The translations under genes and the position numbers were made by a program. Below the pieces are notes generated by a model, which had not been told where the DNA came from, did not search any database, and was given only the letters and a program-made list of their open reading frames with translations. A stretch of 64,000 nucleotides of DNA from Methylococcales bacterium (lineage in GTDB: Bacteria; Pseudomonadota; Gammaproteobacteria; Methylococcales; Methylomonadaceae). The first letter of the stretch is position 1; the number at the start of each line of letters is the position of its first letter. Where the stretch lies: assembly GCA_037133675.1 (NCBI GenBank), contig JBAXNR010000011.1, positions 1,197 through 65,196 of the forward strand, in the 5' to 3' direction. Of this stretch, positions 44,194-49,792 are shown piece by piece.

Positions 44194-44475
44194 GTGCAGT
44201 ATGTTTTAATCATTCATGAAGTCGTTGATTACGCCGCGTGGAAAAAAATTTTCGACCAAGCCGCTGAAATCCGAAAACAAGCAGGTGAAGTAAGTTATCA
44301 GCTTTTAAATGTTCAACACGATACTAACAACATTGTTCACTTTTCAAAATGGACATCGTTGGATAATGCTAGGCATTTTTTTGAATCACCTGCATTGATA
44401 GAGATCAGAAAAAAAGCAGGTGTTAAGTCTCCAGAATTTATCTATTTAAACGAACTGGAAAATAAAGTTTTATAA
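44194..44475 (+). CDS. Small Dabb-fold (ABM-like) protein, function unknown
   Basis: 93 aa, GTG start. The pattern ...VVDYAAWKKIFD...HFSKWTSLDNARHFFESP... resembles ferredoxin-like ABM/Dabb proteins. This is a weak call. Confidence 0.4.
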   Translation: MQYVLIIHEVVDYAAWKKIFDQAAEIRKQAGEVSYQLLNVQHDTNNIVHFSKWTSLDNARHFFESPALIEIRKKAGVKSPEFIYLNELENKVL

Positions 44476-44535: not shown

Positions 44536-44901
44536 ATGGAAGAAGACAAAGATTTAACCGCTCCATCCGACTCCGATGTAGAGGGCGCGTTTTTTAGCTC
44601 TCTAAAACGTAATAACCGACAAATACGCGATGACAGAGCGACCGCCATTGCCGAAGATACCGAGCTAGTTTACAAACGTAAAATCGAAGACCTAGAACTC
44701 AATATTAAAAAAATGAAACGCGAACAGGACAATATGTTAGACCTGTCTCCGACTAACGCACAAAGCCTCATTCTCGCCAGTGATTTTATTTCTGTCGATT
44801 ATGTAGAAAAAGATATTGAACTAGGTATTAAAATCCGCAATACCGAAATCACCCTAGAAATAGCCAGAAAAAGATACCAATACTTATTTGGAGGATTATA
44901 A
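44536..44901 (+). CDS. Acidic coiled-coil protein, no recognisable family (gene 1 of trio)
   Basis: 121 aa with a good RBS (AGAGGAAAATAAAATG) and heptad-like KRKIEDLELNIKKMKREQDNML. Its stop lies 1 nt before the VWA gene start. Confidence 0.55.
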   Translation: MEEDKDLTAPSDSDVEGAFFSSLKRNNRQIRDDRATAIAEDTELVYKRKIEDLELNIKKMKREQDNMLDLSPTNAQSLILASDFISVDYVEKDIELGIKIRNTEITLEIARKRYQYLFGGL

Positions 44902-44902
44902 A

Positions 44903-45751
44903 ATGGGCATGGGCGATTACTCTCTCGATGATAGAACAACAAGAGCAACAACACTGGGTTATACCACCAAACCTGCCAGCGAAATATTCTCACCAAGTGC
45001 CAGCAATGCGATGAATCCGCATGGCATAATGCTTCGAGAATCCAGAGATTCTGATGAACATCCTAATACCGTGTCGATTATCTTAGCACTGGATGTCACT
45101 GGTTCTATGGGGTCTATCCCACACTTTCTTGTGAAAGAAGGTTTGCCTAAAATTATGGGTAATATTATTCAACGTAATATTAAAGACCCACAATTATTAT
45201 TTCTAGCCATTGGCGATCATGAATGCGATAACAGTCCCTTACAAGTCGGGCAGTTTGAATCCAGCGATGAATTATTGGATAAATGGCTAACCGAAGTCTA
45301 TCTCGAAGGCGGTGGCGGTGGTAATGGTGGCGAAAGTTATTTATTAGCGTGGTATTTTGCAGGTTTCCATACTGTATTAGACAGCGTTGAAAAAAGACAA
45401 CAAAAAGGCTTTCTTTTTACCATTGGTGATGAACCCACGTTACGCGAATTACCTGCGACAGCTCTTAAAAAGATAATGGGTAATGGGCAGTATCAAAATT
45501 ACTCTGCCAGTGTATTACTGGATAAAGCGCGTGAACATTATCATGTTTACCATCTGCATATTAAAGAAACCTCCTCAGGTAGCCAACAAACTGTAATGGA
45601 TGGTTGGAAAGAATTAATGGGTGACAAGCTCATTCTGGTGGAAAAACACGCGGAGATTGCCAAAATAATCCCTGATATAGTGTCTAAAGTAACCGCTTCA
45701 GCAGCGCGACCAGACGATATTATCAAAGAAAAAACTCCGATTATTTTATAA
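44903..45751 (+). CDS. Cytoplasmic VWA domain protein with an intact MIDAS (gene 2 of trio)
   Basis: ATG 44903 is preceded by GGAGGA. It contains ILALDVTGSMG (DxTGS MIDAS), LAIGDHECD, a glycine loop EGGGGGNGGESY and FTIGDEP. There is no signal peptide or TM. Confidence 0.8.
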   Translation: MGMGDYSLDDRTTRATTLGYTTKPASEIFSPSASNAMNPHGIMLRESRDSDEHPNTVSIILALDVTGSMGSIPHFLVKEGLPKIMGNIIQRNIKDPQLLFLAIGDHECDNSPLQVGQFESSDELLDKWLTEVYLEGGGGGNGGESYLLAWYFAGFHTVLDSVEKRQQKGFLFTIGDEPTLRELPATALKKIMGNGQYQNYSASVLLDKAREHYHVYHLHIKETSSGSQQTVMDGWKELMGDKLILVEKHAEIAKIIPDIVSKVTASAARPDDIIKEKTPIIL

Positions 45752-45753
45752 CA

Positions 45754-46857
45754 ATGGCAAACAAGGCAGTAATAGGTTTAGGTTATGGGGATGAAGGTAA
45801 AGGTTTGTTTATCGATTATCTTTGTTCCCAATCAACTAATCCATTAGTTATTCGTTTTTCAGGTGGACAACAAGCAGGACATACCGTTGTCAGCAATGGA
45901 ATTCGTCACGTTTTTTCTAATTTTTGTGCAGGAACATTAAAAGGCGCACCCAGTTATTTTTCCAAGTTCTGTACCATTGACCCCATTGGTATCGTTAATG
46001 AATTATCAGTATTATTGGATAAAGGGTTTAAACCATTATTATTTATCGATGCGCATTGTCCAGTGACCACGCCTTACGATATAGCGTATAACCAAAAAAA
46101 TAATAAACATGGCAGTTGTGGTGTGGGTGTTGGCGATACGATAAACCGCGAAGAACATCATTATTCCTTAACCTTTGCCGATTTATTTTATCCTTGGGTA
46201 TTAGAAACCAAACTAGCGTTAATAAAAGCCTTTTATTCGGGTTATGACGAGGTGAATTTAAGTAATTTTTTAGAATGCTGCGAACTTATTACTCATTCTA
46301 TTTATATTGAAAAAAGCCACGATGTACCAAAAAATAATTACAGTTATTTATTTGAAGGATCGCAAGGTTTACTGCTCGATAAAAATATTGGTTTTTTCCC
46401 CCACGTTACCCGCTCAAATACCGACACGAAAAATATATTAACTTTATTAGGGCATGAAACTCTGTCGATTTATTTAATAACTCGCGCCTATCAAACCAGA
46501 CATGGTGATGGTCCTTTATCCAATGAATCCATACCGCATAATATTAGTAAAAATCCTAATGAAACTAATATCACTAATAAATATCAAGGCGCGTTAAGAA
46601 TCGCGCTGCTCGATGTATCATTATTGGAATATGCGATAAATAAAGATGATTATCTACGCTGTACAAAAAATAAATCCCTAGTCATCACTTGCCTAGATCA
46701 TATTCACAATGAATACCGCTTTACCTATCAAAATGCCATTATCTACTGTAAAAATGAAACGGAATTTGTTAGTAAAATCGCCAGCATTTTAAATATTAGT
46801 AATATTTATATTAGTGCGTCAGAAGATTCAAAAAACATTCACTCATTTTCTGGGTGA
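45754..46857 (+). CDS. Adenylosuccinate synthetase-like enzyme, shortened and divergent (gene 3 of trio)
   Basis: 367 aa with GLGYGDEGKG (P-loop), GGQQAGHT, FEGSQGLLLD, FPHVTRSNT, AYQTRHGDGP and ITCLDHI. These align with the PurA motifs GDEGKGK, GGHNAGHT, FEGAQG, YPYVTSSNT, STRVGxGPFP and TKLD. The GATTGRRRR loop is not conserved. Confidence 0.8.
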   Translation: MANKAVIGLGYGDEGKGLFIDYLCSQSTNPLVIRFSGGQQAGHTVVSNGIRHVFSNFCAGTLKGAPSYFSKFCTIDPIGIVNELSVLLDKGFKPLLFIDAHCPVTTPYDIAYNQKNNKHGSCGVGVGDTINREEHHYSLTFADLFYPWVLETKLALIKAFYSGYDEVNLSNFLECCELITHSIYIEKSHDVPKNNYSYLFEGSQGLLLDKNIGFFPHVTRSNTDTKNILTLLGHETLSIYLITRAYQTRHGDGPLSNESIPHNISKNPNETNITNKYQGALRIALLDVSLLEYAINKDDYLRCTKNKSLVITCLDHIHNEYRFTYQNAIIYCKNETEFVSKIASILNISNIYISASEDSKNIHSFSG

Positions 46858-46963: not shown

Positions 46964-48103
46964 ATGACAAATACGCCAATAAATCCAGATTTACTGCCTG
47001 TATTAGAAGTCTTCAAGCAAGATGCTGGTCAAGTGTGCGTTAAATTATCAGGCTGTTGGAATATTCGTAGCTTATCGATGAATGTGGATATACAGCAAAA
47101 ACTCAAAAACATCAGCGCAAATAAAACCCAACAATGGGATATGCGTTGTGTGAATGTCTTGGACAGCGGTGCGGCTTTGATACTTTGGCAAGCATGGGGT
47201 GAAAAAATGCCGAGTGCGTTGCAAATAAAGCCTGAACATCAAGGCTTACTCGCCCGTTGGCAAGCACAAACTGTTGGCACTATTGAAGTCACGCCGTTTC
47301 GTTTTCGTTCGCTGTTAGAGAATTGCGGTCAAACTGCCGTAAACTTTTGGATACAGGTATTGAGTTTTTTAAGCTTATTAGGGCAGTTGGTATTAGATAG
47401 TATTTATTTATTCGTCCATCCACAAGATATTCCTTGGGCAGAAATCTCTATCACGATTTACGATGCAGGAGTCAGAGCCTTAGGTATCACGGCATTGGTG
47501 GGGTTTTTAATTGGTATTGTGTTAAGTTATTTATCAGCTCTGCAATTAAAAATGTTCGGCGCGGAAATTTATATTATTAATATTTTGGGCTTGAGCATTA
47601 TTCGTGAATTAGGTCCTTTATTGGCTGCTATTTTGGTTGCTGGGCGTTCAGGTTCTGCGATGAGTGCGCAAATTGGTATTATGCGCGTGACTGAGGAGTT
47701 GGACGCGCTGTCGGCAATGGGTATTTCGCATTCTGTGCGTTTGGTTTTTCCTAAGGTGATGGCGTTGACACTTGTGTTACCGCTGTTAAGTATTTGGACG
47801 AGCATCACCGCCTTATTGGGTGGTATGTTTGCCGCGCAAACGACATTGGATATAAGTGTGATGCAGTTTTTTATGAAACTGCCCGATGTTGTGCCGTTGC
47901 TCAATGTGTTTATTGGTTTGATTAAAAGTGCGACTTTTGGTTTATTTATCGCGCTGATTGCCTGCCATTTTGGTTTTCGTATTGAACCGAATACCGAAAG
48001 TTTGGGTAATGAAACCACTAATTCTGTGGTTGCCGCTATTACCATTGTGATTATGGTCGATGCAGTGTTTGCGATATTGTTTATGAGTGTGGGAATGCCA
48101 TGA
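46964..48103 (+). CDS. MlaE-family ABC transporter permease with an N-terminal STAS-like extension
   Basis: 379 aa. The C-terminal ~260 aa form a polytopic MlaE/YrbE-type region (ELGPLLAAILVAGRSGSAMSAQIGIMRVTEELDAL). Confidence 0.85.
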   Translation: MTNTPINPDLLPVLEVFKQDAGQVCVKLSGCWNIRSLSMNVDIQQKLKNISANKTQQWDMRCVNVLDSGAALILWQAWGEKMPSALQIKPEHQGLLARWQAQTVGTIEVTPFRFRSLLENCGQTAVNFWIQVLSFLSLLGQLVLDSIYLFVHPQDIPWAEISITIYDAGVRALGITALVGFLIGIVLSYLSALQLKMFGAEIYIINILGLSIIRELGPLLAAILVAGRSGSAMSAQIGIMRVTEELDALSAMGISHSVRLVFPKVMALTLVLPLLSIWTSITALLGGMFAAQTTLDISVMQFFMKLPDVVPLLNVFIGLIKSATFGLFIALIACHFGFRIEPNTESLGNETTNSVVAAITIVIMVDAVFAILFMSVGMP

Positions 48104-48861
48104 GTGTAAGCTGTGCTATCGAATTGAAACACCTGTGGACGCATTTTGGTGATAAAGTCATTCATCAAGACCTTAATTTGTGTTTGCCCGCAGGGGAAAT
48201 ACTAGGCTTGGTGGGCGCGTCTGGCTGTGGTAAAACCACGTTGTTGCGCGAAATTATCGGTTTGCATTCACCTAGTCAAGGTGAGATTTTCGTCTTGGGA
48301 CAATCTATCAGTGAAGCGAATCAGGGGCAAACGTTACTCAGTAGTTTCGGAGTATTATTTCAAAAAGGCGCGTTATTTAGTGCGTTGAATGTATTTGATA
48401 ATATCGCTTTTCCGCTACGCGAATTGGGCTTTCATGATGAAAACATCGTGCATCGATTAGTATTTATGAAGCTTATTATGGTGGGATTAACTGAAAGTGA
48501 TGCACGCTTAATGCCAGCGGATTTATCTGGCGGTATGATTAAACGCGTGGCATTGGCACGGGCATTGATTTTAGAACCGAGTATATTGTTGTTAGATGAG
48601 CCTACTGCGGGCTTAGACCCGATTGCCAGTCAAGATTTTGTTGATTTACTCGCTGAACTGCATAAAGAACTTAATTTCACCGCAGTGATGGTCACGCATG
48701 ATTTAGATATTCTGCGTGATTTATGTACTAAAGTGGCGGTATTAGCGGAGCATCAGCTCGTGGCTTTTGGAACGCTAGATGGTGTGTTGGCGTGTCAACA
48801 TACCTTTGTTAAGCAATTTTTTCACAATAAACGCGCTGAACGAGTATTTCGTTATGGGTAG
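48100..48861 (+). CDS. ABC transporter ATP-binding protein (MlaF-like)
   Basis: Contains GASGCGKTT, LSGGMIKRVALARAL and LLLDEPTAGLD. It overlaps the permease stop. Confidence 0.9.
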   Translation: MSVSCAIELKHLWTHFGDKVIHQDLNLCLPAGEILGLVGASGCGKTTLLREIIGLHSPSQGEIFVLGQSISEANQGQTLLSSFGVLFQKGALFSALNVFDNIAFPLRELGFHDENIVHRLVFMKLIMVGLTESDARLMPADLSGGMIKRVALARALILEPSILLLDEPTAGLDPIASQDFVDLLAELHKELNFTAVMVTHDLDILRDLCTKVAVLAEHQLVAFGTLDGVLACQHTFVKQFFHNKRAERVFRYG

Positions 48862-49792
48862 AAATAATCACGCATTAATGACAGGTTTATTTTTGTTGGT
48901 GCTAGCCATTATCACCGCTGTCATTATTTTTTGGATGGGGCATTTCGATAGAAAGCGGGATATTTACACTATTGCTACACGTGCGTCAGTGTCAGGGCTT
49001 AATCCGCAATCAACAGTATTCTTTCGTGGCATTGAGGTTGGTAAAGTCATCAGTGTGCAGTTTGATCCCAATGACTCAGGTATTATTTTGGTGCCGATTG
49101 AAGTTGATACCAAAATTGTACTCACCAAAGGCGTTTATGCAACCCTGCGCTTAAAAGGCGTGACGGGGTTAACTCAAATTGAATTAGCCGATGAAGGTAA
49201 AATTACCGAACGCTTACCCGCTAATAACAGTGATACCGCTAATCGTATTCCTTTACGCCCTTCAATCACCGACAAATTATTAGACTCAGGTGAACGCTTG
49301 TTGGCAAAAGCCGATATTATAATGACGCGCTTGGATGGCTTATTAACTGATGAAAACACCGAAAATATCGGCGATATTTTGGGAAATCTAAAAACGCTCA
49401 GCCAAAAATTGAACGATTTGAATAAAAGTATCAATACCGCACTGGCAGGTGTTCCCGCCTTAACCCACGATGCCCAAGATACCTTAAAACACATCAATCA
49501 TTTAACCAATGAATTACAAACCTTAAGCAAAGAACTGCGCGTATTGAGCTTTAAAACAGGCAACTTTACCGATAAAGCAGGGCAGTTTGCGGATACGGGC
49601 AAAAACATAGGCGATATGATGATGCAATCCACCTTACCCAAAATGAACACACTGCTAACAGAATTACAATCGACTTCACAACAGGTGAAAAGTACGGCTA
49701 CCTTACTAGAAAATAACCCCCAGTCACTGTTACTAGGGCCTAAGTCCTCAGAACCAGGACCAGGTGAAGCGGGTTATGAGGAGAGCAAATGA
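48854..49792 (+). CDS. MCE/MlaD-family substrate-binding protein with a long helical C-terminus
   Basis: ATG 48854 overlaps the ATPase stop (ATGGGTAG). It has an N-terminal TM and an MCE core (FFRGIEVGKVISVQFDP...). The coiled tail is as in PqiB/Mce-like proteins. Confidence 0.85.
   Translation: MGRNNHALMTGLFLLVLAIITAVIIFWMGHFDRKRDIYTIATRASVSGLNPQSTVFFRGIEVGKVISVQFDPNDSGIILVPIEVDTKIVLTKGVYATLRLKGVTGLTQIELADEGKITERLPANNSDTANRIPLRPSITDKLLDSGERLLAKADIIMTRLDGLLTDENTENIGDILGNLKTLSQKLNDLNKSINTALAGVPALTHDAQDTLKHINHLTNELQTLSKELRVLSFKTGNFTDKAGQFADTGKNIGDMMMQSTLPKMNTLLTELQSTSQQVKSTATLLENNPQSLLLGPKSSEPGPGEAGYEESK

Follow-up and report, generated by a model that had tools for sequence, protein, structure and literature searches.

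A PurA-superfamily protein lacking the aspartate-recognition residues of PurA and encoded beside a vWA-like gene in bacteria and large phages

Organization of the locus

A stretch of 64,000 nucleotides from a Methylococcales bacterium (contig JBAXNR010000011.1), referred to below as the window, carries a three-gene cassette whose third and last gene (45754..46857, + strand, ATG start) encodes a 367-aa protein resembling adenylosuccinate synthetase (AdSS), the product of purA. The first gene (44536..44901, +) specifies a 121-aa, apparently helical protein named here SMALL. The second (44903..45751, +) encodes a 282-aa vWA-like protein with a metal ion-dependent adhesion site (MIDAS), which was recognized by homology to PHROG 2971 (E=7e-42) and by Foldseek. 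The genes are tightly packed: the ATG of the vWA gene lies 1 base after the stop codon of SMALL, and the vWA stop codon is followed at 2 nt by the ATG of the PurA-like gene, in another reading frame. Based on conservation within the family, the true start of the vWA gene is the ATG at 44903 and not the mechanically assigned TTG at 44888, which overlaps SMALL. The GGAGGA Shine-Dalgarno sequence for the vWA gene is found within the last codons of SMALL. No description of a module consisting of a vWA and a PurA-like gene was found in the literature, and searches with the PADLOC models gave zero matches for all three cassette proteins.

The PurA-like protein

The PurA-like open reading frame (ORF) encodes a selected, well-folded protein of the PurA superfamily. 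It matched PF00709 (E=3.8e-44), with positions 1-346 of the 416 in the profile covered, sequence searches of the PDB retrieved PurA chains with E values down to 5e-25, and E. coli PurA was aligned to a profile of 28 family members with E=6e-49. The curated equivalog models for PurA were not reached, the scores being 120.6 bits against a cut-off of 402 for NF002223 and 103.7 against 395.6 for TIGR00184, and the curated PurZ model NF038379 gave 42 bits against a cut-off of 300. The AlphaFold2 model had a predicted local distance difference test score (pLDDT) of 90.6 and was matched by Foldseek to canonical PurA with template modelling (TM) scores of 0.77-0.80, to PurZ0 with 0.65 and to PurZ with 0.61-0.64; the K16Q, R143L and R303L mutant PurA structures were among the matches. 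All structure models in this work are of monomers only and were built from less diverse alignments without the phage and locus sequences. A preliminary description of this DNA, made from the sequence, had put the protein at about 65 aa shorter than typical PurA, which agrees with a length of 367 aa against 432 aa for the E. coli enzyme. The shortfall corresponds mainly to the C-terminal insertion of bacterial PurA (approximately residues 345-395), which PurZ and archaeal PurA lack likewise.

The 120 database homologues listed for the protein share 57-95% identity with it, and an exhaustive profile search with the family returned at least 150 clusters (50% identity) at E<1e-100. No fusion partners which could serve as clues to function were found among the top 150 representatives, all of which are single-domain proteins of 281-444 aa.

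Residues of the active site

In E. coli AdSS, as established by the work of Honzatko and Fromm, Asp13 acts as the base and His41 as the acid, Lys16 contacts the gamma-phosphate and Gln224 the purine. The 5'-phosphate of inosine monophosphate (IMP) is bound by Asn38, Thr129, Thr239 and Arg143' and the guanine of GTP by Lys331 and Asp333, while L-aspartate is held by Val273, Thr300, Thr301, Arg303 and Arg305. Residues at these positions were counted in 99 homologues from cassette loci and in 148 representatives of 50%-identity clusters, the latter sharing just 38-53% identity with the PurA-like protein of the window.

The residues for catalysis and GTP binding are kept. The P-loop GDEGKG with Asp13 and Lys16 (residues 12-17; 45787..45804, +) is invariant in both sets of homologues. 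His41 is found in the motif GGQQAGHT (residues 37-44; 45862..45885, +), in which Asn38 is replaced by Gln (His in 147/148 and Gln in 142/148 representatives). The segment at 46351..46422 (+) begins with FEGSQG (residues 200-205), carrying the Gln224 equivalent, and ends with VTRSNT (residues 218-223), carrying that of Thr239; these two residues are present in 148/148 and 146/148 representatives, respectively. The counterpart of the PurA motif TKLD is TCLD (residues 312-315; 46687..46698, +), aligned to T330-D333 of the E. coli enzyme, with Thr in 138, Cys in place of Lys in 139 and the guanine-specifying Asp in 142 of the 148 representatives. Taken over both sets, the P-loop, Asp13, Lys16, His41, Gln224 and Asp333 are invariant or at least 96% kept, and the near-invariant residues of the clade are G12, D13, K16, G17, His41, Glu221, Gln224, Gly225, Thr239, Arg272 and Gly274. 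The preliminary description had listed the P-loop with its catalytic Asp, the His motif, FEGSQG, VTRSNT and the guanine-specifying Asp as retained, and every one of them was located at the positions given above.

The residues which recognize L-aspartate in PurA are, in contrast, all replaced throughout the clade. The remodelled "aspartate loop" ETNITNKYQGALRIALLD (46561..46614, +) was placed by profile alignment to E. coli PurA and by residue counts, and conforms to a family motif E-x-N-x(2,3)-N-x-[YFWH]-Q-G-x-[FL]-R. In the profile alignment of the loop GATTGRRRRTGWLD of the window protein, Thr300 is replaced by Tyr, Thr301 by Gln, Arg303 by Ala and Arg304 by Leu; a gap stands opposite Arg305, and Arg306 is retained, as is the LD. 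The change of Thr301 to Gln is found in 99/99 locus homologues and in 145/148 representatives; Thr300 is replaced across the clade by Tyr, Phe, Trp or His, and Gly298 mostly by Asn. By both MAFFT and profile alignments Arg303 and Arg305 are lost clade-wide, to a variable residue and a gap. The fifth aspartate ligand, Val273, is a His in the motif TRHG (46495..46506, +), without exception in either set (99/99 and 148/148). It had been claimed beforehand that both Thr and most Arg residues of this loop are missing; the segment concerned, TNKYQGALRIALLD, lies within residues 270-287 and the profile gave the identical register. A shift of the aspartate-binding residues, raised in the preliminary description as a possible error, was looked for with the 28-member profile against E. 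coli PurA and no shift was seen. Misalignment of the catalytic residues in a dead paralogue had been considered there as well. The register was reproduced, the residues are invariant, and the ratio of nonsynonymous to synonymous substitution (dN/dS) of the PurA-like gene is 0.065 against a homologue of 82% amino acid identity in a second Methylococcales metagenome-assembled genome (MAG), from which it follows that purifying selection on the gene is strong and that it is not a dead paralogue.

The nucleotide side of the pocket is altered as well. The segment GSCGVGVGD-TINRE (46111..46152, +), examined by alignment counts in both sets of homologues, contains at residues 120-128 the sequence GSCGVGVGD, which does stand in place of the PurA loop GTTGRGIGP as previously described. 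In the window protein Thr129 has become Cys and Arg131 has become Val; over the clade Thr129 is replaced by Cys or Val. Three of the four ligands of the IMP 5'-phosphate are thereby changed (Asn38 to Gln, Thr129 to Cys or Val, and Arg143, whose equivalent is unconserved), Thr239 being the only one kept. Arg132 (window numbering) is a new residue of the clade, present in 148/148 representatives, and together with Arg220, which is often present, may compensate for the changed ligands. The substitutions at Thr129, Asn38 and Arg143 would also permit a modified nucleotide substrate. Neither these changes, nor the invariant His at the Val273 position, nor the gene cassette had been part of the preliminary description.

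Judged from the residues, the core for catalysis has been preserved, and the pocket for the acceptor has been rebuilt and is not decayed. The shared PurA catalytic set leads one to expect GTP-driven activation of a 6-oxopurine in the PurA-like clade, and the replacement of the aspartate pocket by residues conserved clade-wide indicates a new, selected acceptor specificity. The earlier suggestion that GTP-dependent phosphoryl activation is retained with a different nucleophile or nucleotide is supported by this combination of conserved core and replaced pocket, and the product is very probably something other than adenylosuccinate.

The vWA and SMALL proteins

Conserved columns of the vWA family were found in the window protein at the N-terminal tail MGMGDYS (44903-44923), RESRDSDEHPN (45035-45067), the MIDAS-like motif DVTGSMG (45092-45112), PLQVGQFES (45236-45262), GGGGGNGGES (45308-45337) and TIGDEP (45419-45436), all on the + strand. 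The MIDAS-like motifs DVTGS, GGGGGN..ES and GDE are invariant in the family. No Pfam model scored over threshold and no PDB sequence was matched, and the structure model resembled vWA/integrin I and VWF A domains with Foldseek E values of approximately 1e-5; the lack of sequence matches despite the fold and the MIDAS motifs marks this as a very divergent vWA domain. The model was mediocre (pLDDT 69.9), with residues 1-41 of low confidence though conserved. The start M-G-x-[GSTA]-x-[YWF] was observed in 116/120 database homologues and is the conserved start of 83/83 ORFs from the loci, those of phages included. The low model confidence of this conserved N-terminus of about 40 residues is what a flexible tail would be expected to show. 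Conservation of the vWA protein matches or exceeds that of the enzyme: its dN/dS is 0.09, and the Methylococcales copy shares 43-57% identity with those of Bacteroidota.

The best viral structural match of the vWA model in BFVD was A0A3G3M5V4, a 595-aa protein of Mycobacterium phage Sauce (TM 0.72 over the query). Being about double the length of the query, it suggests that the vWA partner is fused or extended in some mycobacteriophages.

No relatives of SMALL outside the cassette context were identified in Pfam, PHROG, the PDB or isolate phages. Saprospiraceae, Niastella, Hymenobacter and Mucilaginibacter (L066:5109-5981, L068:5120-5989, L074:4876-5754 and L081:5004-5882, L numbers denoting loci), as well as the viral loci L156, L158, L160 and L163, have in its place c26, a cluster of proteins of about 290 aa. 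That c26 is a homologue of SMALL was ruled out by BLASTP, and hhalign gave a probability of 0.7%. Inspection of c26 by eye revealed a segment resembling kinases, "H-x-G-[LI]-N-P-E-S", and, close to the N-terminus, the motif "LHPD" resembling that of J-domains; the DnaJ Pfam match was sub-threshold (E=0.08).

Distribution and linkage of the cassette

With an alignment of the vWA protein as probe, 546 related stretches were found in bacterial contigs (one genome per species) and 305 in IMG/VR, which puts the cassette in more than 500 species of bacteria and about 300 viral contigs; gene content was examined in the best 80 of each. Where the contig permits, virtually all of the best 80 of the 546 bacterial stretches have the PurA-like gene immediately after the vWA gene. 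The two are neighbours in the same orientation in 81/84 bacterial or phage loci and in 76/80 IMG/VR viral contigs, and SMALL is directly upstream of the vWA gene in 67/84 and 63/80, respectively. The IMG/VR contigs bearing the cassette are up to 364 kb long, with genes as densely packed as in phages. Among isolate phages, records with the vWA and the PurA-like protein numbered 201 and 200 for Mycobacterium, 10 and 10 for Rhizobium, and 6 and 6 for Vibrio. No gene separates the pair in Rhizobium phage RHph_Y65 or in Vibrio phage Va1, and only a 112-aa ORF (gp272) does so in Mycobacterium phage I3. Cultivable carriers include Flavobacterium johnsoniae, Chryseobacterium, Mycobacterium phages of the I3/Bxz1 type, Vibrio phage Va1 and Rhizobium phages.

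A gene for a GIY-YIG/NUMOD homing endonuclease is inserted between the vWA and PurA-like genes at L096:2312-3133 and also in L097, L154 and L120 (viral). Directly upstream of its vWA gene, Mycobacterium phage I3 has a gene for a Ser/Thr kinase (gp270).

Comparison with known systems

PurA (EC 6.3.4.4; PF00709; E. coli 1ADE/1CG0) shares with the PurA-like clade the fold, GDEGKG, Asp13, Lys16, His41, Gln224, Thr239 and the guanine Asp. The clade differs from it in the L-Asp pocket and the 5'-phosphate ligands, in lacking the C-terminal insertion, in the constant vWA neighbour and in the location of its genes outside purine biosynthesis loci. With no aspartate-recognition set and with scores below the curated cut-offs, its members should not be filed as PurA.

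PurZ and PurZ0 (N6-succino-2-amino-2'-deoxyadenylate synthase; 6FM1, 7ODX, 7VF6) are similarly short, phage-carried offshoots of PurA and offer a precedent for a change of specificity. Aspartate is still used by PurZ, the nucleotide being dGMP by virtue of Asp13->Ser, and most of these enzymes use ATP or dATP, with Ser or Asn at the position of the guanine-specifying Asp (bioRxiv 10.1101/2025.10.22.683976). The PurA-like clade, unlike PurZ, keeps Asp13 and the guanine Asp and loses the aspartate pocket. None of the Z-cluster genes DatZ, MazZ and DpoZ was among the recurrent neighbours at approximately 160 loci. By these residues the PurA-like enzyme is neither PurZ nor PurZ0. In the records of isolate phages (e.g. 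NC_070967.1, NC_067270.1, PP083314.1) the protein is labelled "PurA-like adenylosuccinate synthetase" or, by way of PHROG 1211 and RefSeq, "2-aminooxy adenylosuccinate synthetase". Support for these names is lacking in the clade. It has neither the PurZ nor the PurA substrate signature, which would make the PurZ-derived "2-aminooxy" name a wrongly propagated one; "adenylosuccinate synthase" and "2-aminooxy adenylosuccinate synthetase" are probably both wrong for it.

In gene architecture only, a MIDAS vWA gene beside that of a P-loop NTPase, the cassette is like the MoxR-vWA, CobS-CobT and BchI-BchD pairs. The NTPase here is, unlike those of the MoxR type, not AAA+; it is a SIMIBI-class homologue of PurA with an intact ligase active site.

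Neighbouring genes of NAD+ and ADP-ribose metabolism

In Bacteroidota the neighbours of the cassette identified by Pfam were NrtR (Nudix plus winged helix), NADAR, ADP-ribosylglycohydrolase (ARH), Tpt1/KptA, DUF4291, 2OG-Fe(II) oxygenase, Prs-like and NAMPT/NadV proteins; macro, Sir2 and metallophosphoesterase (MPE) neighbours were assigned by sequence inspection only. With PrsL standing for the Prs-like and PURAL for the PurA-like gene, the order is NrtR-PrsL-SMALL-VWA-PURAL-NadV in Cellulophaga and Pricia, NrtR-PrsL-SMALL-VWA-PURAL-NADAR-Tpt1-MPE-ARH-NadV in F. johnsoniae, and NrtR-PrsL-NadV-ARH-c26-VWA-PURAL in Mucilaginibacter. Among viral contigs, L136 has PrsL-NadV-VWA-PURAL-Macro and L148 and L150 have Macro-SMALL-VWA-PURAL-NADAR...NadV. 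A NADAR gene is located three genes upstream of the pair in Vibrio phage Va1, and phosphoribosyltransferase-like and NMN-adenylyltransferase/Nudix genes a few genes upstream in Rhizobium phages. Co-location with NrtR and genes for NAD salvage or ADP-ribose was seen in Flavobacteriia, Mucilaginibacter and a few viral contigs, and neither in the window nor in most proteobacterial and viral loci. No shared operator motif of the NrtR palindrome type was detected upstream of the cassette.

Iyer et al. 2022 (PMC9503650, section 3.8) described islands that are regulated by NrtR or WYL proteins and have ADP-ribosylglycohydrolase at their centre. Phosphatases, NADAR and Macro proteins and a vWA "peptide-binding chaperone" are encoded there too, and the proposed role is to counteract ADP-ribosylation by viruses; that description does not include the PurA-like enzyme. 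The Bacteroidota cassette is like these islands in lying in clusters with NrtR, ARH, Macro, NADAR and a calcineurin-like phosphoesterase, and unlike them the cassette also stands alone and in phages. DUF4291 and an unassigned family of 138-aa proteins (c9) recur in the islands of Flavobacteriia.

Two pathways of NAD+ reconstitution (NARP) concern us here, NARP1 consisting of Adps and Namat and NARP2 of Nampt and Nmnat. The cassette, like them, is shared by phages and bacteria, and in Flavobacteriia, in Mucilaginibacter and in some of the viral contigs its neighbours on one or both sides are genes of the Prs-like and NadV-like types. It differs in that none of its proteins is homologous to any NARP enzyme and in that most copies, that of the window included, are not beside NAD genes. 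We know of no role for a GTP-dependent purine ligase in these pathways. NARP3 was considered as a related system and found to be unrelated. The Prs-like protein of Flavobacteriia (L012, L053, L038 and others) has 278 aa and weak Pfam matches to Prs, and with the NadV-like protein it resembles the phage NARP1 pair; the two could be bacterial counterparts of Adps and Namat and not classical Prs and NadV. NadV is common in phages (2046 records). That it always accompanies the phage copies of the pair was rejected, there being 104 Mycobacterium records with NadV against 201 with the pair.

Proposed function

To our knowledge aspartate is the only acceptor in PurA chemistry, in which a 6-oxopurine is converted to an N6-substituted adenine at the expense of GTP, and PurZ, the only characterised offshoot, alters the nucleotide. 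We propose, with somewhat more confidence than doubt, that the PurA-like protein is a GTP-dependent 6-oxopurine-nucleotide:amine ligase with an acceptor other than aspartate, and that together with the vWA protein it serves in a contest between phages and hosts for nucleotides and NAD. The first step would yield a 6-phosphoryl-purine-nucleotide intermediate from GTP and either IMP or a closely related 6-oxopurine. The C6 of this intermediate would then be coupled to a neutral or cationic amine and not to a dicarboxylate. The enzyme would act in a complex with the vWA protein, which would supply, recruit or gate the acceptor, and its role, as read from gene context only, would lie in the competition of phage and host for adenylate and NAD+/ADP-ribose pools. 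The His/Gln/Asn/aromatic pocket would by its composition suit an amide-like, peptide-like or ring-containing acceptor, and the vWA tail with its invariant N-terminal Gly is a natural candidate to deliver or to be that acceptor. On prior grounds a small-molecule amine with the vWA protein as a regulator is at least as likely as an acceptor delivered by the vWA protein. Roughly divided, a small-molecule amine (ammonia included, which would give AMP directly) is put at a little under even chances, with a smaller but still considerable share for an amine on a protein or peptide that the vWA partner would present.

Several observations weigh against the proposal. The 5'-phosphate pocket is altered, so that the substrate could be other than IMP. 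The part assigned to the vWA protein is taken from linkage only, and no covariation beyond phylogeny was detected between its N-terminal positions and the enzyme pocket. As for the NAD component, most proteobacterial and viral flanks of the cassette are unrelated to NAD, no NAD-related or ADP-ribose genes are present in the 64-kb window, and at most about half of the mycobacteriophages with the pair have a NadV match. Since most flanks are without NAD genes, the link to NAD rests mainly on Bacteroidota plus a few phages.

Of more specific alternatives, the most plausible, though we would not expect it to prevail, is that ammonia or a small neutral amine is the acceptor. IMP would then be turned in one step into AMP or N6-substituted AMP without PurB, providing adenylate for the rebuilding of NAD+ or for phage replication, and the vWA and small proteins would only regulate or scaffold. 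The known shifts of specificity in the superfamily are among small molecules, PurZ being an example, the cassette lies between Prs-like and NadV metabolic genes in Bacteroidota operons, and ammonium could be deprotonated by the His that invariably stands in place of Val273. This leaves the constant presence of a vWA protein that equals or exceeds the enzyme in conservation unexplained, the Asn/aromatic/Gln/His pocket is more elaborate than ammonia requires, and the cassette has no linked gene for a glutaminase or another enzyme that would supply an amine. In a rather unlikely alternative in our estimate, the acceptor is a protein amine, and the N-terminal Gly of the vWA protein, or the Lys of a client at the MIDAS face, would attack 6-phosphoryl-IMP to give an N6-linked AMP-protein ("purinylation"). 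The coupling of the enzyme and vWA genes is obligate, the M-G-x-[GSTA]-x-[YWF] start is conserved down to the phage copies, residues 1-41 are conserved yet modelled as disordered, and a pocket minus both Arg and with added Gln, Asn, His and aromatic residues suits a peptide backbone. It also agrees with the use of vWA domains as protein-binding modules (PMC9503650). The lack of tail-pocket covariation argues against a protein acceptor, and Gly2 may be conserved for another reason, be it the removal of Met, protein stability or an interaction of the protein with its own MIDAS site. Nor do we know of any precedent for N6-linked nucleotide-protein adducts, which counts against it too.

Proteins with vWA domains are typically paired with NTPases, and the vWA "peptide-binding chaperone" is found in NrtR/ADP-ribosylglycohydrolase islands (PMC9503650), which would agree with the PurA scaffold being a pseudo-enzyme, a regulatory GTPase serving a vWA "co-chaperone" in the manner of MoxR-vWA, with no ligation. 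We regard this as improbable: the equivalents of Gln224, Thr239 and Asp13, which are needed for 6-oxopurine chemistry and not for GTP hydrolysis, are invariant, and so is the new substrate-pocket motif. An ordinary, divergent and short adenylosuccinate synthetase comparable to the archaeal PurA of 340 aa would be expected to share the fold and catalytic residues, as the PurA-like protein does; short PurA exists, namely the Pyrococcus enzyme (2d7u/5k7x), and databases name the protein adenylosuccinate synthase. This is nevertheless very improbable in view of the clade-wide replacement of Thr300, Thr301, Arg303, Arg305 and Val273, the score of 120 bits against the 402-bit PurA cut-off, the low-GC signature of horizontal acquisition, and a linkage which is always to the vWA gene and never to genes of purine synthesis.

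A large and strongly selected clade with a rebuilt acceptor pocket implies an undiscovered nucleotide product or protein modification. Linkage to the vWA gene, the operons with NrtR, NadV and ADP-ribose genes and the NAD genes of phages place the cassette in a field of phage-host conflict centred on NAD+ and nucleotides. Should a protein amine prove to be the acceptor, the chemistry would be categorically new, a previously unknown covalent linkage of N6-purine nucleotide to protein serving large phages and bacteria in conflicts centred on NAD+ and ADP-ribose. As the cassette is present in cultivable hosts and phages, these predictions can be tested directly.

Genomic setting

The window is approximately 99% identical to a Methylococcales MAG from Lac Pavin (L005). 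In the window the cassette is a low-GC insert with the signature of horizontal acquisition, its GC content being 0.376 against 0.419 for the window and the GC content at third codon positions of the PurA-like gene 0.274 against approximately 0.39-0.41 for the neighbouring genes. It is flanked on one side by an aminotransferase gene and a small ABM-domain ORF and on the other by MlaE/F/D genes. A canonical purA is absent from the window. A scan for promoters and terminators at the window locus did no better than on shuffled sequence. Flanks differ between the two Methylococcales MAGs, copies in Electronema, Gammaproteobacteria and Bacteroidales are among unrelated housekeeping genes, and the only common features of the viral flanks are scattered TROVE/Ro60-like, RNA ligase, HAD_SAK_2, RecA-like and clamp loader genes. 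Such unrelated flanks across hosts and viruses mark the cassette as an autonomous, mobile unit.

The 93-aa ORF upstream of the cassette (44194-44475, +) has a borderline ABM domain (E=9e-5, just below the Pfam cut-off). It is present solely in the near-identical loci L004 and L005 and is therefore probably outside the module. The downstream genes (46964-49792, +) form an operon of the MlaE-MlaF-MlaD type; the MlaE homologue has an N-terminal extension of about 160 aa, and its Pfam match to MlaE is limited to residues 164-371.

Genes of RNA-repair type recur a few genes away from the cassette in large uncultured phages (L091:5247-6836, L093:1755-2789 and L129:14945-15481), the types being TROVE/Ro60-like, RNA ligase with a PHA02142 OB domain, and HAD_SAK_2. 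A polynucleotide kinase gene is nearby in phage I3, and Tpt1/KptA is encoded in the cassette operon of F. johnsoniae. The recurrence of such neighbours hints at a link to RNA repair besides that to NAD.

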